From positions 1 to 56,493 of the IMG/VR virus record IMGVR_UViG_3300045988_039967: DNA of 56,493 bases. One strand, given 5' to 3'. The DNA comes from a virus. Made by a program: the position numbers and the translations under genes. How positions within the stretch are numbered: position 1 is the stretch's first letter; each line of letters starts with the position of its first letter. Shown piece by piece: positions 11,513 through 25,372 of this stretch. A model generated the notes under the pieces. The model searched no databases and was not told the DNA's origin. It saw only the letters and a list, made by a program, of their open reading frames with translations.

Positions 11513-11584
11513 TCGGATAGACAGGACTTGAACCTGTGACTACTTGAATAAATCAAGTGTTACTCCCAACTGAACTACTATCCG
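11513..11584 (-). tRNA. tRNA-like gene with apparent UUA anticodon (possible ochre suppressor or non-functional/decoy tRNA)
   Basis: 7-bp acceptor CGGATAG/CTATCCG, U8, GG in the D-loop, T-arm ACAGG-TTCAAGT-CCTGT. The anticodon arm CTTG-ATTTATT-CAAG has U at position 37. Confidence 0.5.
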
Positions 11585-11708
11585 CTATTGCAGACGAAGT
11601 AGCAATTCATCCGCAATGTAAGTGACTTTTGTCGCTACCTTTGTCTCACTTAGACGGACTTTGTTATACCGTTTCCGACAATGCCTTCGTTCACAGCCGA
11701 AAGTTATT

Positions 11709-11849
11709 GATGTGGTGTGGATTTGAACCACACATAAAGCGTGCACTCTTTACGTTGGAGGGAATCGAACCCATAGGCATAACCCAAATGTTTTTAATCC
11801 ATATGCCTGTCTCCTAGCCATCCGTTACTTACCCATTTGTATACACATC
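11709..11849 (-). other. Degenerate or interrupted tRNA-like element with two T-arm motifs
   Basis: TGTGG-TTCAAAT-CCACA and GGG-TTCGATT-CCC. A 6/7-bp acceptor-type pairing (GATGTGT/CCACATC) spans 141 nt. No canonical cloverleaf found. Confidence 0.3.
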
Positions 11850-11873
11850 AACAGTCAGTATTATGCTGACTAA

Positions 11874-11956
11874 CGCCGACAGTAGGAATCGAACCTACAT
11901 AACATTTCTGTTGGATAGCTTAGCAAGCTATTGGAATACCATTATCCCATATCGGC
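11874..11956 (-). tRNA. tRNA-Ser (GCU), long variable arm
   Basis: Acceptor GCCGATA/TGTCGGC, anticodon arm ATAGC-TTGCTAA-GCTAT, variable hairpin AACA-GAAA-TGTT, T-arm GTAGG-TTCGATT-CCTAC. Confidence 0.85.
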
Positions 11957-12036
11957 TTAACTGAGAAGCGAGGCGCTAACCCTCTTTATTCTGCTGATAC
12001 TTCTCAGTATCACATTTTTACAACGATTTAGCCATT

Positions 12037-12104
12037 AGGCTGTGATTTTTGGGTTAATCGTGAACCCGATAGAACCAATAGGGAGTTGCACCCTATCAGC
12101 CCTA
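12037..12104 (-). other. Candidate three-way-junction RNA structure
   Basis: Closing helix TAGG(G)CTG/CAGCCTA encloses hairpins ATAGGG-TGCAACT-CCCTAT and GGGTT-CACGATT-AACCC. Confidence 0.25.
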
Positions 12105-12293
12105 GTTGTTACTTTTGCAAAGGAGTACATTGTTGCCGCCTTTTACGGCTGGGTGGTACAGGTTGATTTTCACAAAACCTTCACGGGGTTTTTGACGCCC
12201 CTTAACAGCTCTCGCTATGAAGGAAGAAAGGAGTATTACACACATGCAAAAAGAAAAGTGTAACACAAAGGTGAAATCAAAAGTGATTCCACA

Positions 12294-12364
12294 CAGGACT
12301 AGTGGGATTTGAACCCACGAATACAGGAATCAAATCCTGTGCCTTACCGCTTGGCGATAGCCCT
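12294..12364 (-). tRNA. tRNA-Gln (UUG)
   Basis: Near-textbook Gln tRNA: AGGGCTATCGCCAAGCGGTAAGGCACAGGATTTGATTCCTGT...GTGGGTTCAAATCCCAC. Confidence 0.9.
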
Positions 12365-12416
12365 AAATGGTGTGTATTCTCAGCTTTTATTCCACACCGG
12401 CCTCATTATCAGTTCT

Positions 12417-13387: not shown

Positions 13388-14023
13388 CTATTTGTTGAAT
13401 TGTGTATCATTTTCGCTCAATTGCAAGGGTGGCGAGTACTCCAATTGTGCGGTATTTTCGTTAAATTTCGGAATGCTTGCGTAATCAATAGCCCTGTGCT
13501 TGCTGGTCTCCCTAACGCCCGGCATATTCCAGCTGTGAACCTTATTCAACTTAGGCAAGTACTTCATCGGATTGTTGCGGCGGTCCTTCATGAGATTGAA
13601 TAAACTTTCTTCGTTATCTTGCATAATTTTTTCTTGCAAGTCAAAAAAGTTTGAGCTTGATCTATTCCCATCACTCCAATTATACAGCGTCTGTTTCTCA
13701 ATCCCTATCATGTCGCAGAACCCTTTCTGCGTAACTTCCTGACAATGTTTATTACAAAGACGCTTATATATATTATTATATACATATGCTACATTATCAA
13801 AATCATATACACCATTATTACTATTTTTATTTAATTTTAATAAATTACGGTTTGGAAAAAATAAAGTATTATATAGCTCTGTAATTATATCAGCCCAAAT
13901 TGATGGATATATATCTTTCTCATCAATCTCATTGTCAATGCAATAATTGGTTACAATGTCCGTAGCTATGGCCGGCATATCTTCAACGCTTGTTATTGTC
14001 TGCGCATTTTCATCTTTCTTCAT
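13388..14023 (-). CDS. terS: Terminase small subunit
   Basis: 211 aa. First gene after the AT-rich region. Central HTH-like KGFCDMIGIEKQTLYNW and a C-terminal RRNNPMKYL...SWNMP pattern. Confidence 0.6.
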   Translation of the reverse strand: MKKDENAQTITSVEDMPAIATDIVTNYCIDNEIDEKDIYPSIWADIITELYNTLFFPNRNLLKLNKNSNNGVYDFDNVAYVYNNIYKRLCNKHCQEVTQKGFCDMIGIEKQTLYNWSDGNRSSSNFFDLQEKIMQDNEESLFNLMKDRRNNPMKYLPKLNKVHSWNMPGVRETSKHRAIDYASIPKFNENTAQLEYSPPLQLSENDTQFNK

Positions 14024-16480: not shown

Positions 16481-16795
16481 ATGAATTACAAGGTCGGTTA
16501 TAGAATAGACGAGGATGCAGCGCACGGCATTAAGCAGGGCTATAGAATAATAGCGGCTTTTGATTATGTTGTAAATGCGCAGGATTTTATTGAAAAGTGC
16601 ATACCCGCCGAAAATCAAGACAGATTTTTCATGCTGTCAAATAATACAAGATACTACCCAGCAACGGGGAATTTTGAAATATTTTATCCGAAACGCTCCA
16701 AAATCGGAGCGTCAGCCGCGGGATGGTCTCCCGGCTCTGACGATGGCAGACCAGAAAGGAAAAACATGAACAATTATATAAAGGTGATTATATGA
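16481..16795 (+). CDS. Hypothetical protein
   Basis: 104 aa, GAGGAGG RBS. Confidence 0.55.
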   Translation: MNYKVGYRIDEDAAHGIKQGYRIIAAFDYVVNAQDFIEKCIPAENQDRFFMLSNNTRYYPATGNFEIFYPKRSKIGASAAGWSPGSDDGRPERKNMNNYIKVII

Positions 16796-16964: not shown

Positions 16965-17052
16965 AAAGTCGAAACCGCCGCCTGGCGGTCTGCAGGAACT
17001 GCCCCACCTGCACCGATGAGACAGGGCAAACAATGAAAGGATGGTTGATATC

Positions 17053-17773: not shown

Positions 17774-17959
17774 ATGAGATACAAGGAAAGCGACATAAAA
17801 ACGATACAGGACGAATACGGCATGAGAGGCGCAAAGCCTTATATTTACGTCAATTCATCAGCGCATAGATGGTTCATATTGTGGTACGCGGGCGAACCGG
17901 ATGAAGTCGATAATTATACTTGCAGCAGATATACAAGCGTTGCGCAATATCGAATTTAA
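17774..17959 (+). CDS. Hypothetical protein
   Basis: 61 aa from ATG 17774 with GGAGGT RBS. Confidence 0.55.
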   Translation: MRYKESDIKTIQDEYGMRGAKPYIYVNSSAHRWFILWYAGEPDEVDNYTCSRYTSVAQYRI

Positions 17960-17971
17960 TAATTGATTTTA

Positions 17972-17996
17972 AGGGCGTACAATCTGCGCCCTTTTT
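17972..17996 (+). terminator. Rho-independent terminator
   Basis: AGGGCG-tacaatct-CGCCCT followed by TTTTT. Confidence 0.75.
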
Positions 17997-18012
17997 GGCT
18001 TGCTGTGGGTTC

Positions 18013-18033
18013 TGGTTGGTTCGATTCCAGCCG
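18013..18033 (+). other. Second T-loop-like hairpin
   Basis: TGGTTGG-TTCGATT-CCAGCCG. Confidence 0.3.
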
Positions 18034-18055
18034 CAAATGCTTTTATTTGTGTACC

Positions 18056-18084
18056 TTGAAAAATTAATATAAAAGCTGTATAAT
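18056..18084 (+). promoter_or_regulatory. Near-consensus sigma-70 promoter with no obvious gene
   Basis: TTGAAA - 17 nt - TATAAT (TG immediately upstream of the -10). Confidence 0.6.
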
Positions 18085-18515
18085 CAAATTAAGTATTGCC
18101 GGCTTTTCGCTGTCCGGCAGTCTTATTTTGCTACGATTAAAAAGCAAGCGCATATTTGCCGTTTTAAAGCGTTTTAATATGCTTATAGTGTCATTCTTAA
18201 TCTTTTACGCTTGTGCGGCTCTGCGGGGCTTATACGGCTTTACAGCGTTAAAAAATCCCCGGCGGTGCTCTGCCTAATTTTCAGCCGCCGCAGGGTGGCA
18301 GGTCCTTGTCTGACCCTAAAATTCTTCACTCTTTTCAGAAAAAAATTTTCCAATTTTGCTCAACAAATTTTCAAGCACCCAAAAATCAAATTTTCCTCTG
18401 TAAATCTGCAATATAGGGGGGTATCAAAAAATTTTGCAATTGAAAATTTTTGCAAAAAATATTTTTTATTCAGCTTAATATTATAATATGTCAACTATAA
18501 TTAATTAGATATATA

Positions 18516-18548
18516 ACAAAAACAGTTGCCGCATTAAGCAAGCAACTG
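18516..18548 (-). terminator. Rho-independent terminator after the cas5-like gene
   Basis: CAGTTGC/GCAACTG stem followed by TTTTTG on the minus strand. Confidence 0.65.
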
Positions 18549-18556
18549 TCATTGTG

Positions 18557-19258
18557 CTAATTTATAAAAACCACAGGATTATTATTATCAAACAAACAGG
18601 ATTCTACTTCTTGCCCCTTGTCTGCTAATGAACATTTCACTTTTTCAAACATTCTGATTCCTCTTACAATGTCATATCTGTAATTAAGTGAGTAAACAGT
18701 TCCAATAAAGTGCTGTTTGTTTACAGGAATATACGCCGGCATTACAAGTTTCCCTGCCTGCGGCTGTGCAAATTCCTTAAGCTCGGCCACCGCAACATCT
18801 TCAATTATGCACGTATCTCCGTATTCGCCAAGTGACGGATAAACAGGCGGATTCAGCAATGCATTATAAATATCGTCAACATCTGAATCATTAAATGCCT
18901 TAATGTAAATCACAGTGTCAAGGTCAACTAATACAGATTTTGTCTTGGATGACCTTACCCAGCCTGTATGACTTCCATCAGCATTATCAACTATAACATC
19001 CCAACGCTTTATCTCCTCTTCATTAATTTTATTGAATTTATGTCCGCCATGCCATTCTGAGCGGAAATCCGTATTATAGATGCCCTTGCCGGTGATGAAA
19101 AAATCAAGCTTGTGATAACTTTTCCATTGACACATTGAATGAATAAACCCATTAACTGTACTAAACGGCGGCAATGGGTAACAATCAACGCCCTCCGGCG
19201 CATTTGCAATCTTAAATCTCGCCATATTCTGATGCATTTTTAACCTTACTACTCTCAT
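18557..19258 (-). CDS. cas5: Cas5 (type I-B-like) homolog, orphan
   Basis: 233 aa from ATG 19258 (GGAGG RBS). N-terminal ARFKIANAPEGVDCYPLPPFSTVNGFIHSMC matches the Cas5 hallmark (F[RK]...YP.PP.ST..G). SLGEYGDTCIIEDV resembles the SLGR.ED...I..V of I-B Cas5. Length and C-terminal end are also similar. Confidence 0.6.
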   Translation of the reverse strand: MRVVRLKMHQNMARFKIANAPEGVDCYPLPPFSTVNGFIHSMCQWKSYHKLDFFITGKGIYNTDFRSEWHGGHKFNKINEEEIKRWDVIVDNADGSHTGWVRSSKTKSVLVDLDTVIYIKAFNDSDVDDIYNALLNPPVYPSLGEYGDTCIIEDVAVAELKEFAQPQAGKLVMPAYIPVNKQHFIGTVYSLNYRYDIVRGIRMFEKVKCSLADKGQEVESCLFDNNNPVVFIN

Positions 19259-19372
19259 AATAATTCCTCCAAAATATAAAATAAGCCGCACTTAATAAAA
19301 GTACGACTTTCCAATATGGAACTATTAAAATATACAATCATCAATTTTTTACATCACAGTTATAATACCGTT

Positions 19373-19531
19373 TCAGTTATCAAATGTCAAGCTTTTTGGC
19401 GTAGTATTTGCCGTTATAATCAGTGAATTTGCTGAATATCTGCATACCGCCATTTCTTCAATCAGCCTTTCTTTTGTCATCCCCGGATTAGTTCTTTTTA
19501 CATACTCAAGAATCTTATCAATACTCATCAT
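19373..19531 (-). CDS. Hypothetical 52-aa protein
   Basis: ATG overlaps the upstream TGA (ATGA coupling). Confidence 0.45.
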   Translation of the reverse strand: MMSIDKILEYVKRTNPGMTKERLIEEMAVCRYSANSLIITANTTPKSLTFDN

Positions 19532-19854
19532 CCCACTCTCCTAACTGCTCCTAAAACCATATCAACAATGTCAAATACTTCATCTCCGTACGTTGCCACA
19601 AAATCACAGAGCACTTCTTCCTGTTCAATCGGCAAATATATGTCATATGACATGCAGATAGCATGCGTAATCTCATGAATTAATACTTTGCGTAAAAATC
19701 CGCCTTGCAGCATATCAGACAAATAGACAGTGTTTGTATTTCTATCTGTAACTCCAACACTCAATGTGCCGTCAGAGCGCTGTAATTGCCTATTATTTGC
19801 ACTTACATATTTAATGCGCCATGTTGTATCATTAATCGTAAAAAACATCTGCAT
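19528..19854 (-). CDS. Small HExxH metalloprotease-like protein
   Basis: 108 aa with VLIHEITHAIC. Confidence 0.6.
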   Translation of the reverse strand: MQMFFTINDTTWRIKYVSANNRQLQRSDGTLSVGVTDRNTNTVYLSDMLQGGFLRKVLIHEITHAICMSYDIYLPIEQEEVLCDFVATYGDEVFDIVDMVLGAVRRVG

Positions 19855-19968
19855 TCTCCTTTCTGAGCTGTTTCCGAAATGGAAATAACTGAAAAGCCAC
19901 TAACCAAATATCAGCTAGTGGCTTCTTGTATTTATTTTTTGTGTTTTCTGATTGGTAGTCGGAACACT

Positions 19969-20157
19969 CTATTTTTTTAATGCTTTTAGATATTCAGCTT
20001 CAATACCACGTCTGACAAGCTCAGAACAACTGATATTAAGCTTTTCTGCTGTATAATTCAGTTTATCCAATGTCTCATTATCAAGCCTGGTCCTTAACAT
20101 GTAATCTTTTGGGTTATCTTTCCTTTTTCTGCCTGTTTTAGATGACAAAACAATCAC
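19969..20157 (-). CDS. Ribbon-helix-helix (CopG/Arc-like) regulator
   Basis: 62 aa, MLRTRLDNETLDKLNYTAEKLNISCSELVRRGI. Confidence 0.65.
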   Translation of the reverse strand: MIVLSSKTGRKRKDNPKDYMLRTRLDNETLDKLNYTAEKLNISCSELVRRGIEAEYLKALKK

Positions 20158-20170
20158 TCTCCTTTAAAAT

Positions 20171-20269
20171 GTTGCTACATTTTACTATTTTTGTTGCCAC
20201 ATTTTATTAATTTTTGTAGCAACACTTTTTTAATTTTTGTTGCTACATTTTATAATAATCTGTTGCTAC
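20171..20269. promoter_or_regulatory. Array of five phased GTTGCTAC boxes (operators)
   Basis: Boxes start at 20171, 20193, 20216 (inverted), 20239 and 20262, spaced 22-23 bp. A TTGACT -35 (minus strand) lies at 20274-20279. Confidence 0.6.
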
Positions 20270-20289
20270 AAAAAGTCAAGTGGTTATGA

Positions 20290-20321
20290 TAAAAAATGGA
20301 ACGCACCTTTCGATACGTTCC
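20290..20321 (-). terminator. Rho-independent terminator after the lipoprotein gene
   Basis: GGAACG/CGTTCC stem followed by ATTTTTT on the minus strand. Confidence 0.7.
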
Positions 20322-20353
20322 ACTAGTGAATAAATATTTTACTAATTAACTGA

Positions 20354-20854
20354 TTATTCCAATGTTAAAGTTCTGGTTAAAAGTTTTCTTTCACCTACAA
20401 AAGGTTTTATTTCCAGTGTAACATCATCCATGCTATCTTCTAACACAAACGAAGAAGCTACTGTTATAGTAACGCCTTTCTGAATTTCTTTGGCACTGTT
20501 TCTTGATTCATCGTTTACATGCCACATAGAATGCTCAATTTCAACACCATTCTGAAAGCAGGTGTCATCGAAAGAATAGTCAAAGACTGCATTATCACTT
20601 GAATTGTTTGTAAAATCGTAATAAACAACAAGGACTTTTTCCCCTGAACCATTTTCGGTCACTTCATGTCTTAAGTATTTGACAGTCTTGTCTCCGTAAG
20701 TAAATTCTGTATCCGATGGGTTACTTACCGGACTGTTATTACTGATTTGCGATATTACATCGCCAACAGTTTTCTGCTGTCCACAGCCGCCAACTATAAA
20801 AGAACTTACTGTAACCGCTGCTAAAATGGCTACCACCGCCGCTTTTCTCCTCAT
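20354..20854 (-). CDS. Lipoprotein (DUF4352/DUF5067-like)
   Basis: Signal peptide plus lipobox (IVGGC). Beta-rich body. Confidence 0.7.
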   Translation of the reverse strand: MRRKAAVVAILAAVTVSSFIVGGCGQQKTVGDVISQISNNSPVSNPSDTEFTYGDKTVKYLRHEVTENGSGEKVLVVYYDFTNNSSDNAVFDYSFDDTCFQNGVEIEHSMWHVNDESRNSAKEIQKGVTITVASSFVLEDSMDDVTLEIKPFVGERKLLTRTLTLE

Positions 20855-20994
20855 ATTAAATTCCTCCTAATTGTTTTTATTATATAATACTATGAGTTTA
20901 CAAAAAATTCAATATATACAATTCCACTAGCCTATATTTAGTTGCCAAGGTACAATAAACAGGCTATGAATATTGCTACCCATAGCCCTTAAAT

Positions 20995-21609
20995 TTACAG
21001 CTTAGAAACAAGTGTACTAAGTTTGGTGCGCATAAGATTGCGTTCCTCTGCTGTCATATCGCCAATAAGCTGTGTAATGTCACCGCCAAGCTCCTTGATA
21101 TATCCGTCAAGTGCTTTCATCTTATGTTCCTTATCGTCTGGTGTGTTAGCCTTGTGCATTTCCTTAGTTTCTGTGTAGTTTCTTTTTGCTCTGTCATAAC
21201 CGCTTTCAGACATTGGCTCTGTATAGTACATCTTGCCATAATCTCTATCCATATCTCTCATATGCTCTGCTTCTGGGTACATGTGCATATAAGGTGGTTC
21301 TTCATATCCTCTACGATATGTTCCTTTGCCTTTTGGGGCGAATCTGCCATTAGCATAGCGGTAGTGGTCGTAAAATCTTCTGTCTGGATAATCTTCGTAC
21401 TGTTCAAGCATACGCATAATGTCCTCGTTATCTTCTGACTTTTCCATAGCTTCAACAATTCTGTAATCTTTGTCAAAACAAGCTATGTTCTTCGCTATTT
21501 CTGTAAAATCCTTTAAATCGTCAAGGTTCTGCCCCTCAAAGCTATCTAATCCGATTGCTTCAACTTTAGCCTTGACACATTCCATAATCTGTTTAGCCCA
21601 TTTATGCAT
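20995..21609 (-). CDS. Hypothetical Tyr/Met/Asp-rich protein
   Basis: 204 aa ORF. Confidence 0.55.
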   Translation of the reverse strand: MHKWAKQIMECVKAKVEAIGLDSFEGQNLDDLKDFTEIAKNIACFDKDYRIVEAMEKSEDNEDIMRMLEQYEDYPDRRFYDHYRYANGRFAPKGKGTYRRGYEEPPYMHMYPEAEHMRDMDRDYGKMYYTEPMSESGYDRAKRNYTETKEMHKANTPDDKEHKMKALDGYIKELGGDITQLIGDMTAEERNLMRTKLSTLVSKL

Positions 21610-21613
21610 AATA

Positions 21614-22033
21614 TCAAGCCTCCCTTACTGCAATCAAATTACTGTTCTGCACCTCAATAGCCTGTGTAGATGTATTCTGAACCGCTACAGTACTGCAACA
21701 GCCACAAGGTACATCAACATATGCCTGTGCTGATACATTAAAGAAATTCTCAACTGCGGCTGGCGTTACAATCATTCTTGTTGACTGTAAAGGCTCTCCA
21801 TCTACTGCAATGGCAAGTGAAATAGCTTCAACTGTACCGCCTGTAGGTATCTGAATGTTGCCAGAATATGATACTAAAAATCTTGCCTTGCACTGATTGG
21901 TGATACCTCTTAGCTTGATAATTCCACTTCCCTGTCTGTGGACTATACATTTGCTACCGCATACCGGTGTTTCTGTAAATGCCACATCTTCTCCAGCAGC
22001 AACGGTTTGTAATGCAATTCCTGTTATTTCCAT
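21614..22033 (-). CDS. TNF/C1q-like (BclA C-terminal-domain-like) protein
   Basis: 139 aa from ATG 22033 (GAGAGGT RBS). Alternating beta pattern similar to the exosporium BclA CTD. Confidence 0.4.
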   Translation of the reverse strand: MEITGIALQTVAAGEDVAFTETPVCGSKCIVHRQGSGIIKLRGITNQCKARFLVSYSGNIQIPTGGTVEAISLAIAVDGEPLQSTRMIVTPAAVENFFNVSAQAYVDVPCGCCSTVAVQNTSTQAIEVQNSNLIAVREA

Positions 22034-22155
22034 TATCTTTACCTCTCTTTCACAAAAATAAGGGCAAACATTATAGTCTGCCCTTTGGTTATAAGTAATA
22101 CTGCTTAGCAGACATAATCGAGTTAAACTCAATTAAGATACTCAATTATTAAGTT

Positions 22156-22944
22156 TTAGCAGCCACATCCTGTATTGCAACCGCATCCATAAGCATAACC
22201 ATAAAGGTTAGAAGCTGGGAATGATGGGACCGGTGTAGGCCTTACTGCATCAATAATCTGATTTGTCTGTGCGCTCATGGCAGAAGTCAGAAGTGCGTTC
22301 TGTCTATCCTGTGAAGCAGCTCTTCTAAGGTCATTGTTCTCTGCTGTAAGTGTTGCTATCTTATCCTGACATAAGTAGTCTAATATGCTTCTAAAGCCTG
22401 CCTGCTGGCTGTCAATAATATCTCTTGTATTATTGTTCATTGTGTTCTGCAAAGCACAGGTGTTAGTTGCCATGTTATAATTAACTCCCTGAATAGCTTC
22501 CCTTGTCTCGCAGCAGCAGCTAGCAAGCTGTGCCTGTAAAGCATTAGTATTCTGCATATTAGCAACTGTATCAGCGTTAATAGCCTGCTGGATGCCATAT
22601 CCGGTCTGCATGATATTTGTGTTAATACCATTAAAGCCGGTAAGCATACTGTTGTTCATGGCATAAAAGCCATCACAAAGTCCGTTAGAAATGCCATCTA
22701 ACTTGCTGATAACTGCTGAATTGTCAAATCCGCGTTGAATGTCTGCCTGTGTAGCCGCTGTTGCAACATAGCCACCGCCATTGTTGCCACCAAAACCGCC
22801 AAATCCACCATTGCCCCATCCAAAGAGTAATGCAAATACAACGATTATCCAAAGCCATCCGCCGTCAGCCCATCCGCCATTATTGCCGTTGCCGTCAATG
22901 TTAGCGACTAATGGTACGCTGGCACAATTTGAGTTTGAAAACAT
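22156..22944 (-). CDS. Gly-rich membrane protein with Cys-rich C-terminus
   Basis: Start at ATG 22944 after AGGAGG. GGWADGGW plus a TM segment plus GNGGFGGFGG. Ends YGCGCNTGCGC. Confidence 0.6.
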   Translation of the reverse strand: MFSNSNCASVPLVANIDGNGNNGGWADGGWLWIIVVFALLFGWGNGGFGGFGGNNGGGYVATAATQADIQRGFDNSAVISKLDGISNGLCDGFYAMNNSMLTGFNGINTNIMQTGYGIQQAINADTVANMQNTNALQAQLASCCCETREAIQGVNYNMATNTCALQNTMNNNTRDIIDSQQAGFRSILDYLCQDKIATLTAENNDLRRAASQDRQNALLTSAMSAQTNQIIDAVRPTPVPSFPASNLYGYAYGCGCNTGCGC

Positions 22945-23014
22945 ATTGTTACCTCCTAAAAATATATTCATAAAGATGTCACCCAGGTAATTTGCAAAGA
23001 CATCTAATATGCTA

Positions 23015-23245
23015 CTAATTACCAAATCTGCTTTTTATCTGATTAAATACATCATCTGCATTTAACCCCTTTTCCTTGCATAAATTTCTAGCCATTTGCT
23101 CTATGCCTTGCATATTGCCCTGTTGTGCCATCTGCATAGTGTTCTTCAGCATAGGATTACTCATCATCTGATTATTCCCCATCATCTGCTGTATAAACTG
23201 TTGCGGACCAGCTTTTATCATCTGAAAAATGTTAATTGGGTTCAT
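23015..23245 (-). CDS. Met/Gln/Asn-rich small protein
   Basis: 76 aa ORF. Confidence 0.5.
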   Translation of the reverse strand: MNPINIFQMIKAGPQQFIQQMMGNNQMMSNPMLKNTMQMAQQGNMQGIEQMARNLCKEKGLNADDVFNQIKSRFGN

Positions 23246-24241: not shown

Positions 24242-25372
24242 TTATATTACTTTTAATGCTTCCGCCACTTTATTCATTTCTAACTGCTTTTGCTCTTGTG
24301 TAGTATGTACATATAAATTCATTGTTATACCTATGTTTGAATGTCCTAATATCATCTGTAATGTTTTAGGCATCATCCCAGCTTCTATACATCTCGTAGC
24401 AAACGTGTGCCTTAAAACATGCATCGAAAACTTTGGGATATTTGCCTTATCACACACTTTGTAAATTCCGGTGTCATATGTGCTGTTTTTTACCGGCGTA
24501 CCTTTTCTGCATAAAAACACTCTGTCTTTCCATTTTATATCAATAAATTTATATGAAGCATTTTTGTTTTTTTGTAATTTTAGCAGAGATACCGCTTCAT
24601 CAGTAAGTGGAATTGTCCTGTACCCTGATTTGCTTTTGGGTGGTCCCTCTCTCCACTCTCCTGTTGAATGCCTGTATTCTAAACTTCTACTAATTGTAAT
24701 TGTCTTATTCTTCCAATCAACATCTTCCCACTTTAAACCTGCAAGTTCTCCGGTTCTTAATCCTGTTTGTAAGACAAATTTATACTGATATTCATATGAC
24801 GTACCCTCGATTGCCTTACAAAACTTCTTCTGATTTTCAATGGTTAGAGCTTCTTTCTTTGATGAATCCTTGCCTATGTCGGATTTCACCATTCGATTGC
24901 ATGGATTTTTGACAATAACGCCATTCTGATATGCATAATCAAGCATGTTGTATAGTGCTATGCGTGTCTGATATATCGTTGCTGTCCTGTAATTCTCATC
25001 AGCCATATCGTTCATTATCTTTTGGCAATGAAGCGTGTTGACCTCTCGCAGTATCTTATTCCCGATAACAGGCTTTATATTGCGATTGTATCTCTCAGTG
25101 TAGTTCCTAAGCGTGTTCGGTCTTACTGTACGCTTTTTAACGCTTATCCAGTAATCAAACCAAGCACCAACTAACATATCTGATGGAAATTCTAAATTAG
25201 TATGTTCATCTGCGTATTGTTCATCAGCAAGCCATTTTCTACATTCTTGCAGCTTTGTAAACAGCTTCTGTACTCGCTTTCCGCTCCTTGAAGTATATCT
25301 GCCGACATAGTATTTGTCTTTTCTCTGGCTGATACCTTTGCCAAGTTCCTTGCCTCTTAAATCCTTTCCCAT
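24242..25372 (-). CDS. int: Tyrosine integrase
   Basis: 376 aa. C-terminal HVLRHTFATRC...LGHSNIGITMNLYVH catalytic signature. Confidence 0.9.
   Translation of the reverse strand: MGKDLRGKELGKGISQRKDKYYVGRYTSRSGKRVQKLFTKLQECRKWLADEQYADEHTNLEFPSDMLVGAWFDYWISVKKRTVRPNTLRNYTERYNRNIKPVIGNKILREVNTLHCQKIMNDMADENYRTATIYQTRIALYNMLDYAYQNGVIVKNPCNRMVKSDIGKDSSKKEALTIENQKKFCKAIEGTSYEYQYKFVLQTGLRTGELAGLKWEDVDWKNKTITISRSLEYRHSTGEWREGPPKSKSGYRTIPLTDEAVSLLKLQKNKNASYKFIDIKWKDRVFLCRKGTPVKNSTYDTGIYKVCDKANIPKFSMHVLRHTFATRCIEAGMMPKTLQMILGHSNIGITMNLYVHTTQEQKQLEMNKVAEALKVI

Follow-up and report, generated by a model that had tools for sequence, protein, structure and literature searches.

An orphan viral Cas5b homolog with a crRNA-like unit in its leader: a candidate two-part anti-CRISPR module of gut Firmicute phages

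Cas5 is the subunit of Cascade that binds the 5' handle of the CRISPR RNA (crRNA). Here we describe a cas5 gene that stands alone in a viral genome, IMG/VR record IMGVR_UViG_3300045988_039967, whose full 56,493 nucleotides (hereafter the window) were analysed. The gene occupies positions 18557–19258 on the minus strand, and its leader (19369–19271, minus strand) encodes a crRNA-like unit. We think it probable that protein and RNA together make up an anti-CRISPR module directed at the type I-B system of the host. Anti-CRISPR proteins derived from Cas subunits and anti-CRISPR RNAs that copy regulators of cas genes have each been described recently, and separately; in this locus the two are physically coupled. 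The coupled protein is a homolog of the subunit that holds the 5' handle of the guide, and the same pairing is seen in six or more lineages of gut Firmicute phages.

The nearest protein precedent is AcrIB3 of a Listeria prophage, a protein 38% identical to Cas5b that inhibits type I-B immunity; it co-purifies with Cascade and, acting upstream of the DNA-binding step, prevents that binding (bioRxiv 10.1101/2023.06.24.545427). The same study by Katz et al. catalogued 358 orphan viral cas genes in IMG/VR, and its Table S3 lists IMGVR_UViG_3300029054_000005 as a cas5 of class CAS-I-B with host genus Lachnospira (bioRxiv 10.1101/2023.06.24.545427). That record is locus L034 of our analysis, so the orphan cas5 of this phage family is already catalogued and the novelty implied by a preliminary description of the window, made from its letters alone, does not stand. 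AcrIB3 (sequence taken from the Katz et al. supplement) and the window protein are alike in being full-length Cas5b homologs of similar length (237 and 233 aa), each encoded alone on a temperate phage of Firmicute hosts that carry type I-B systems. They differ in that the two are only 29% identical, and no crRNA-like unit has been described beside acrIB3. Inhibition of type I-B has been shown for AcrIB3, whereas the window protein is known from its sequence and predicted fold.

The nearest RNA precedents are the viral Cracr RNAs, mimics of the host regulators CreR and CreA that are taken up by Cas effectors, compete with crRNAs and repress the promoters of cas or toxin genes (Liu et al., bioRxiv 10.1101/2024.10.29.618823). 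They also cooperate with co-encoded Acr proteins, and their short spacers let Cracr complexes escape AcrIF24; types V-A, I-E and I-F were tested, and I-B candidates were predicted only (bioRxiv 10.1101/2024.10.29.618823). The window unit shares with Cracr loci a mini-array-like form with degenerate repeats and a short pseudo-spacer, a co-encoded candidate protein anti-CRISPR and, in sister phages, a pseudo-spacer that copies a host regulatory RNA and matches a cas promoter. Unlike in the Cracr loci, the partner here is a Cas homolog. The same architecture is found in CreR/CreA units (bioRxiv 10.1101/2023.03.10.532045; Li laboratory) and in units beside cas6 of Lachnospira eligens and eight other I-B loci; those host units sit in the cas locus for autorepression, whereas the window unit lies in a phage beside an orphan cas5. 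A repeat-derived RNA and a protein anti-CRISPR also share one transcript in the RacrIC1-AcrIC5 bicistron (PMC10651486). A Racr, however, consists of a single repeat, works by sequestration and lacks a guide, while the window unit comprises handle, pseudo-spacer and truncated repeat. The literature searched contains no account of a distinct viral Cas5 clade coupled to a crRNA-like unit that mimics CreR. The pipeline of Liu et al. dropped matches adjoining cas genes, and their main text does not mention Cas5 (bioRxiv 10.1101/2024.10.29.618823). Pipelines that discard repeat-like matches beside cas genes, or cas matches beside repeats, can miss such modules.

The 233-aa product of the open reading frame (ORF) at 18557–19258 (minus strand) matches the NCBIfam Cas5b model TIGR01895 from end to end (residues 1–226 against model positions 1–215 of 217; E 1.4e-16, 60.8 bits). 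The score lies below the curated cutoff of 96.7 bits, and the Cas5b of L. eligens reaches 93.9 bits with the same model in PADLOC; judged by these scores, the window protein is a Cas5b homolog, not an equivalog. Nine Cas5 or Cas5b models of PADLOC match it (E-values 1e-22 to 1e-14, the best 1.3e-22), and a custom profile built from 65 Cas5b proteins of complete I-B operons gives an E-value of 1.3e-45. Scans with Pfam and PHROGs gave no match, detection coming from NCBIfam and PADLOC only. An AlphaFold2 model based on 100 homologs has a mean predicted local distance difference test score (pLDDT) of 95.5, and the best 30 PDB matches found with Foldseek are all Cas5 subunits (template modelling scores 0.5–0.59), led by the Cas5 of a type I-B CRISPR-associated transposon (8fcj_A, E 2e-8) and of a type I-E system (5u0a_N), with type I-A and I-C Cas5 following. 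The profile and fold matches together make the assignment sound, and the ORF is a genuine Cas5b homolog, as the preliminary description had proposed in calling it type I-B-like.

The protein is 28–33% identical to Cas5b proteins encoded in cas operons. A profile search among 1.8 billion representative sequences yielded 468 relatives. A distance-based (neighbour-joining) tree was built, in which operon context was scored by a Cas7-sized ORF upstream and a Cas3-sized ORF downstream. The window family clusters with representatives P0013–P0029 and genome loci L089–L091, and all members of this clade with readable context are orphans in phage-like settings. All 60 operon-context sequences and AcrIB3 fall on the opposite side of a split recovered in 100 of 100 bootstraps. 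The viral clade retains the core YPLPPxSTxxGxxH..C together with G144, D148 and R202, and carries a clade-specific insertion of seven residues (76–82). Eleven residues that are 93–100% conserved in operon proteins are replaced in it (N14, Y15, S20, E25, M38, Y67, F69, H86, R145, E147 and W204), five of which (E25, M38, Y67, R145 and E147) are each invariant among the 60 operon proteins; AcrIB3, in contrast, keeps most operon residues. By tree and residue pattern, the viral Cas5 clade is a separate, more derived lineage found only outside cas operons.

In IMG/VR, 119 stretches encode Cas5 relatives 64–68% identical to the window protein; 80 of them were retrieved, and locus comparisons covered 88 related loci (L001–L088). 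At 57–95% identity the relatives share 88 invariant columns, and cas5 has its own conserved promoter (below), for which reasons we regard it as a functional gene and not a relic. A decaying remnant of a cas locus was considered and rejected, the gene being conserved, widespread and promoter-equipped. A scan of genome collections yielded no prophage copies of the close family because its pattern required T or S before YPLPP, where the viral family has C.

No other cas gene accompanies cas5. Profiles of Cas6, Cas8b, Cas7 and Cas3 (from 61–65 I-B operons) matched none of the window's stop-to-stop ORFs, and among the top 25 families listed by PADLOC and by Pfam for its 148 ORFs of at least 70 aa there was no other Cas protein. 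The preliminary description was right on this point and also in reporting no CRISPR array, since we found no repeat-spacer array in the window either; what it overlooked is the solitary crRNA-like unit in the cas5 leader. The features of this region, in the direction of transcription, are as follows.

19362–19390, minus strand: promoter-like site TTGACA-17-TATTAT, agreeing with 11 of 12 consensus positions (promoter scan)
19367–19362, minus strand: -10 box TATTAT of this site, 7 nt before the handle
19347–19354, minus strand: equivalent of the 8-nt 5' handle (repeat 3' end), ATGTAAAA, read from the sequence
19330–19346, minus strand: 17-nt pseudo-spacer AATTGATGATTGTATAT (allele C), the same allele as in L202–204
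19309–19329, minus strand: truncated I-B repeat (psi-repeat 2) TTTAATAGTTCCATATTGGAA, stopping at the expected Cas6 cut site
19271–19309, minus strand: terminator-like hairpin and U tract (terminator scan), after the crRNA-like unit and before the ribosome-binding site of cas5
19258, minus strand: ATG of cas5, preceded by its ribosome-binding site
18519–18549: hairpin CAGTTGC...GCAACTG and T run, a terminator after cas5, possibly bidirectional (read from the sequence; its loop exceeds 8 nt and the terminator scan did not list it)

With its own promoter and the order degenerate repeat, short pseudo-spacer, degenerate repeat (19390–19271, minus strand), the leader has, as read from its sequence, a Cracr/CreR-like architecture. 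The -35 and -10 boxes are kept in L001, L002, L005 and L202–204, and this site would drive the crRNA-like unit and, via read-through, cas5. Firmicute I-B repeats in our data set end in ATGTAAAT/G/C. Folding of the leader RNA gives -20.5 kcal/mol (z -2.8), with the hairpin formed but neither the handle nor the pseudo-spacer paired; both arms of the stem carry changes in L001 and L005, where the stem is nonetheless preserved. A 20-nt portion of psi-repeat 2 is identical to the psi-repeat of a CreR-like unit upstream of cas6 in the host locus L147. We extracted I-B repeats from arrays in 56 of 80 genome loci, and a hidden Markov model (HMM) of 43 such repeats finds its best match in the window, both strands considered, at the truncated repeat.

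The linkage is repeated elsewhere. In L001, L005, L171, L172, L174, L089, L090 and L091 the best repeat-HMM match of each locus also lies 21–95 nt from the orphan cas5, so that nine loci in six independent lineages carry a repeat unit less than 100 nt from cas5; our own rough estimate of the joint chance, with these lineages counted as six independent cases and a target zone of 200 nt allowed in each locus, is about 1e-11. The unit is in the upstream leader in the window family and L171, downstream of cas5 in L172, L174, L090 and L091, and convergent in L089. Its layout is common to all: one to four units (with a period of 47–48 nt in L091), the last repeat ending after TGGAA, and then a terminator. 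In four lineages the handle begins 4–7 nt past the -10 box, counted from the sequences.

On its other side, cas5 and its terminator adjoin an ORF-poor stretch of about 500 nt (17960–18556) with a near-consensus promoter (18056–18084, plus strand), a piece resembling a tRNA T arm (GGTTCGATTCC, near 18010–18035) and a motif, TAGGGGGGTATCAAAAAA (18416–18433), conserved in L001 and L005. The region downstream of cas5 (17900–18600) was tried as a Racr or a known RNA and gave no Rfam and no repeat-HMM match.

The window is a temperate siphophage with a tyrosine integrase (24242–25372, minus strand), an SPP1-type portal, a capsid protein, RecT, SSB, a methyltransferase and RtcB; its relatives are IMG/VR genomes of 52–61 kb, and prophage copies also exist. 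IMG/VR predicts Lachnospira as the host of a sister contig. In line with the host type I-B Cascade that the preliminary description had in view, L. eligens has a complete system (Cas6b, Cas8b, Cas7b, Cas5b, Cas3b, Cas4b and Cas1b, with two arrays). Sister phage L035 has a site, next to a CCG protospacer adjacent motif (PAM), that agrees at 34 of 36 nt with a I-B spacer of Roseburia sp. AM59-24XD; Lachnospiraceae I-B systems therefore target this phage family. This was the single match to any sister phage among 1856 usable spacers (25–50 nt; 1894 were extracted from host loci), and none of the set matches the window.

Units of the same kind lie beside cas6, on either strand, in nine host I-B loci (L107, L099, L165, L131, L150, L154, L103, L147 and L163). 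That of L. eligens BIOML-A1 (L103) reads GGGATGTAAAT / AATTGATAATTAATATAATCAAC / TTTTAATAGCTACATTTTGGAA, and about 40 bp from it stands CCA AATTGATAATTTATAT, which extends into the -35 box (TTGACA) of the cas6 promoter. The L147 and L163 units likewise have a CCA PAM and 16 of 17 nt matching at the cas6 promoter. The pseudo-spacers of the phage family fall into several forms. Allele A, AATTGATAATTAATATATCA, occurs in 43 of 88 sister phages; allele B, AATAGATAACTATTATATCA, in about 39 of the 88 loci; the remaining loci have a further form, of the L005 type; and allele C is that of the window and its nearest relatives, L202–204. Allele A equals the L. eligens CreR-like pseudo-spacer over 17 nt. 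Next to a CCA PAM, it also fits the cas6 promoter of L. eligens without mismatch over 16 nt, positions 6 and 12 (flipped-out bases) being left free, and the target site abuts the -35 box. In 1.2 Mb of host loci, searched with a CCN PAM and positions 6 and 12 free, this is the only zero-mismatch match of any pseudo-spacer tested. Over its first 11 nt, allele C has a single mismatch with the L. eligens CreR-like pseudo-spacer, and likewise with the target of that pseudo-spacer at the cas6 promoter. A cognate host site for allele C at cas6 promoters would have the form CCA+AATTGATGATT; a metagenome scan for a host CreR with the allele C seed ATGTAAATAATTGATGATT returned 26 unrelated environmental matches.

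Three observations on these sequences are of separate interest. I-B loci of Lachnospiraceae and Clostridia commonly have CreR-like units with a CCA PAM and 16–17-nt matches at the cas6 promoter (L103 6413–6561, L147, L163); neither 'Lachnospir' nor 'Clostridi' appears in the main text of the CreR preprint (bioRxiv 10.1101/2023.03.10.532045). In L099 (2965–7530), from a Clostridiaceae metagenome-assembled genome with a CreR-like unit upstream of cas6, the genes cas6-cas8b-cas7-cas5 run directly into 3.5 short-spacer crRNA-like units, and cas3 does not follow; the locus may represent a regulatory I-B variant that lacks Cas3, from which the viral pair of cas5 and RNA possibly came. Within the window itself, CCA + AATTGATGGATATATAT at 13895–13914 (plus strand), inside a 211-aa ORF (13388–14023, minus strand), resembles the window's own pseudo-spacer, with an 8-nt seed, 13 of 15 scored positions and the host PAM; the resemblance could be chance or a self-target.

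We propose the following mechanism for the two-part module. The strong promoter would yield a short crRNA-like RNA starting at or near the 8-nt 5' handle, with the 17-nt pseudo-spacer, a repeat ending at the Cas6 cut site and then the terminator hairpin. By analogy with host CreR and viral Cracr RNAs, this RNA would be made in excess and loaded into host Cascade. A short, partly matching guide should permit DNA binding without cleavage by Cas3, so that Cascade would be held at the cas6 promoter of the host and cas expression would cease, while the viral RNA competes with immune crRNAs. Read-through of the hairpin would give the mRNA for the viral Cas5b, which may replace host Cas5 in Cascade. 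There it would act in one of two ways, by disabling immune complexes in the manner of AcrIB3 or by making assembly on the viral RNA more likely. A functional coupling would address the known puzzle of how a phage could inhibit Cascade without a CreR-based burst of new Cas synthesis in the host. It would also extend Cracr biology to type I-B and to the abundant Lachnospiraceae of the human gut, and offer a compact natural design, a short guide plus an altered Cas5, for non-cleaving type I CRISPR interference (CRISPRi). The conserved coupling of the viral Cas5 clade with the crRNA-like unit makes the locus worth experiment.

Several points weigh against this proposal. The window's own allele C agrees with the L. 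eligens cas6-promoter site at only 10 of the first 11 nt, 7 of them contiguous, and is then out of register; no cognate target for it was found in 77 host I-B loci. The host assignment is a database prediction made for a sister contig. Taken alone, the truncated repeat is a weak match (6.9 bits, E about 1), and its weight comes from the comparison with relatives; the crRNA-like unit is known from sequence alone, its production, processing and loading being predicted. With so many operon-invariant residues lost, the viral Cas5 may no longer fit Cascade at all. A DNA-binding block like that of AcrIB3 would moreover cripple the viral guide's complex too, so the two parts would need a mechanism of discrimination. 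Some of these points suit a simpler, though unlikely, account in which viral Cas5 alone poisons Cascade in the manner of AcrIB3 and the leader is a Racr-type decoy or a relic of a captured cas locus, with no guide function: AcrIB3 is itself a Cas5b homolog that co-purifies with Cascade and blocks its DNA binding, Racr decoys co-transcribed with acr genes are known, and neither the host loci nor the metagenome scan gave a target for the window's pseudo-spacer. This account does not explain why the pseudo-spacer is better conserved than the flanking repeats, why in sister phages it equals a host CreR-like pseudo-spacer and matches the cas6 promoter with a PAM, or why the unit has precise boundaries in six lineages, and the clade of the window protein is distinct from that of AcrIB3 and far more derived. 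Alternatively, viral Cas5 might be no inhibitor and might instead, by binding the handle, nucleate a mini-Cascade with host Cas7, Cas8b and Cas6 specifically on the viral RNA, as a private repressor of host cas genes or of the phage's own. The tight linkage in six lineages whether the RNA is upstream or downstream, the 4–7 nt between -10 box and handle in four of them, core RAMP motifs kept on a protein whose other surfaces have diverged and gained an insertion, and the PAM-flanked partial self-match at 13895 all fit such a hybrid complex. It nevertheless rests on inference, the self-match may be chance, and viral and host handles differ at the last base only, and inconsistently, which leaves no obvious basis for discrimination; we rate it as less likely still. 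A broader and tentative view, to which we give slightly more credence than to either of these, is that the phage Cas5b clade co-evolved with crRNA-like guides as a fixed two-gene unit, viral Cas5 serving as the handle-binding subunit with which the phage builds a non-cleaving mini-Cascade from host Cas7, Cas8b and Cas6. Such a complex would shut out host crRNAs and act as a silencer of the host cas promoter and possibly of phage genes, and the pair would be a virus-encoded protein and RNA CRISPRi device rather than a simple inhibitor.

A further reading, one of three in the preliminary description, placed cas5 last in a four-gene operon under a ribbon-helix-helix (RHH) regulator of Aca type, the Cas5-like protein working with an HExxH protease in a new, CRISPR-unrelated function; we consider it highly improbable. 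The genes concerned, besides cas5, are these.

19892–20279, minus strand: separate RHH cassette of promoter, boxes, RHH gene and terminator
19373–19854, minus strand: syntenic neighbours of cas5, a 108-aa HExxH zincin-like gene (19528–19854) and a 52-aa gene (19373–19531)

In the window the four genes do run head to tail on one strand, the 62-aa product of the first is RHH-like as described, and five phased boxes do precede it: TGTAGCAACA at 20170–20270, 22–23 bp apart, four exact (one inverted) and one with a single mismatch. These boxes overlap a promoter-like site (20279–20252) and so probably serve autoregulation of the RHH gene (19969–20157); in the window they are confined to the RHH promoter, and none lies near the cas5 promoter. 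After the RHH gene the terminator scan finds a 16-bp hairpin and T run (19926–19892), and cas5 has its own promoter at 19390–19362. An RHH homolog (40% identity) is present in 10 of the 88 related loci, where it has different operator-like repeats (GGTGTGACA) and precedes a 283-aa gene, and is absent from 78. From this variable occurrence and neighbourhood we take the space between the 204-aa and 108-aa genes to be a variable cargo site, filled in the window by a DUF5067 lipoprotein gene and the RHH cassette. The regulator is thus not conserved beside cas5 and its operators are not at the cas5 promoter, unlike in an Aca-controlled acr operon. All 88 family loci have the 108-aa gene, the 52-aa gene and cas5 together, yet profile searches place neither small protein beside the orphan cas5 in the five other lineages; the two genes are, on this distribution, probably lineage-specific neighbours and not parts of the Cas5 device. 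The observations of the preliminary description were largely right, and its suggestion of a lone Cascade subunit turned against host type I-B, whether as an anti-CRISPR or by hijacking, is in our analysis plausible, with a direct precedent in AcrIB3, a crRNA-like RNA adjacent and a host genus that has a complete I-B system; its RHH/Aca control and protease partnership are not supported.

The HExxH motif that the preliminary description saw in the 108-aa protein is confirmed. It is invariant in 60 of 60 distinct family sequences, and the AlphaFold2 model, made with database homologs, has a zincin fold (pLDDT 94.1). Its nearest structure is the IrrE/PprI protease domain 8sln_A (E 3.7e-3, probability 1.0), followed by minigluzincins of 105–109 residues. 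IrrE/ImmA-type enzymes cleave repressors, a further point against a joint function with Cas5. Across the locus (window 18557–23025 compared with L001–L088) the flanking genes for 204-aa, 172-aa and 289-aa proteins are often 83–98% identical to those of the window, and cas5 (64–67%), the 52-aa gene (about 54%) and the 108-aa gene (about 70%) are less so; divergence or recombination is therefore faster in the cas5 block than around it.

Other orphan or apparently viral cas5 genes were met in the searches. GenBank matches labelled 'Listeria phage' were considered as AcrIB3 and rejected, as their contigs carry a normal cas6-cas8b-cas7-cas5-cas3 operon. L169 (OR846720.1) and OR848150.1 ('Listeria phage LM 4-11-1 / 4-14-1', UNVERIFIED_ORG) hold this operon complete and of chromosomal I-B type, and are probably host DNA. 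L170 (1831–2898), from Fusobacterium phage vB_FnuS_FNU4, encodes a 355-aa orphan annotated as putative Cas5 whose N-terminus matches Cas5b; the Katz table has many such Fusobacterium phage entries (bioRxiv 10.1101/2023.06.24.545427).

Elsewhere in the window, three tRNA genes (11513–12365, minus strand) comprise a tRNA-Ser(GCT), one whose anticodon loop is odd, and one with anticodon TTA, which would read the UAA stop. Read with the standard code, the phage ORFs appear intact. Together with these tRNAs the window encodes, by the Pfam summary of all its ORFs, RtcB (E 7e-58) and a protein resembling RNA ligase 1, possibly as a tRNA-repair kit against anticodon nucleases. A type II hammerhead ribozyme (16686–16755, plus strand; 62.5 bits, E 5e-12) is followed about 210 nt away on the same strand by a second, below the Rfam threshold (16967–17030; 32.7 bits, E 3e-4), and the two together could release a small RNA. 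A related prophage in L002 (1–5700 of a 407-kb metagenome contig) starts after SpoIIAA-like and SpoIIAB-like genes and a truncated, 85-aa sigma-factor gene, an order that suggests insertion into a sigF-like sporulation gene. Relatives of the L005 type carry a large serine recombinase in place of the tyrosine integrase.

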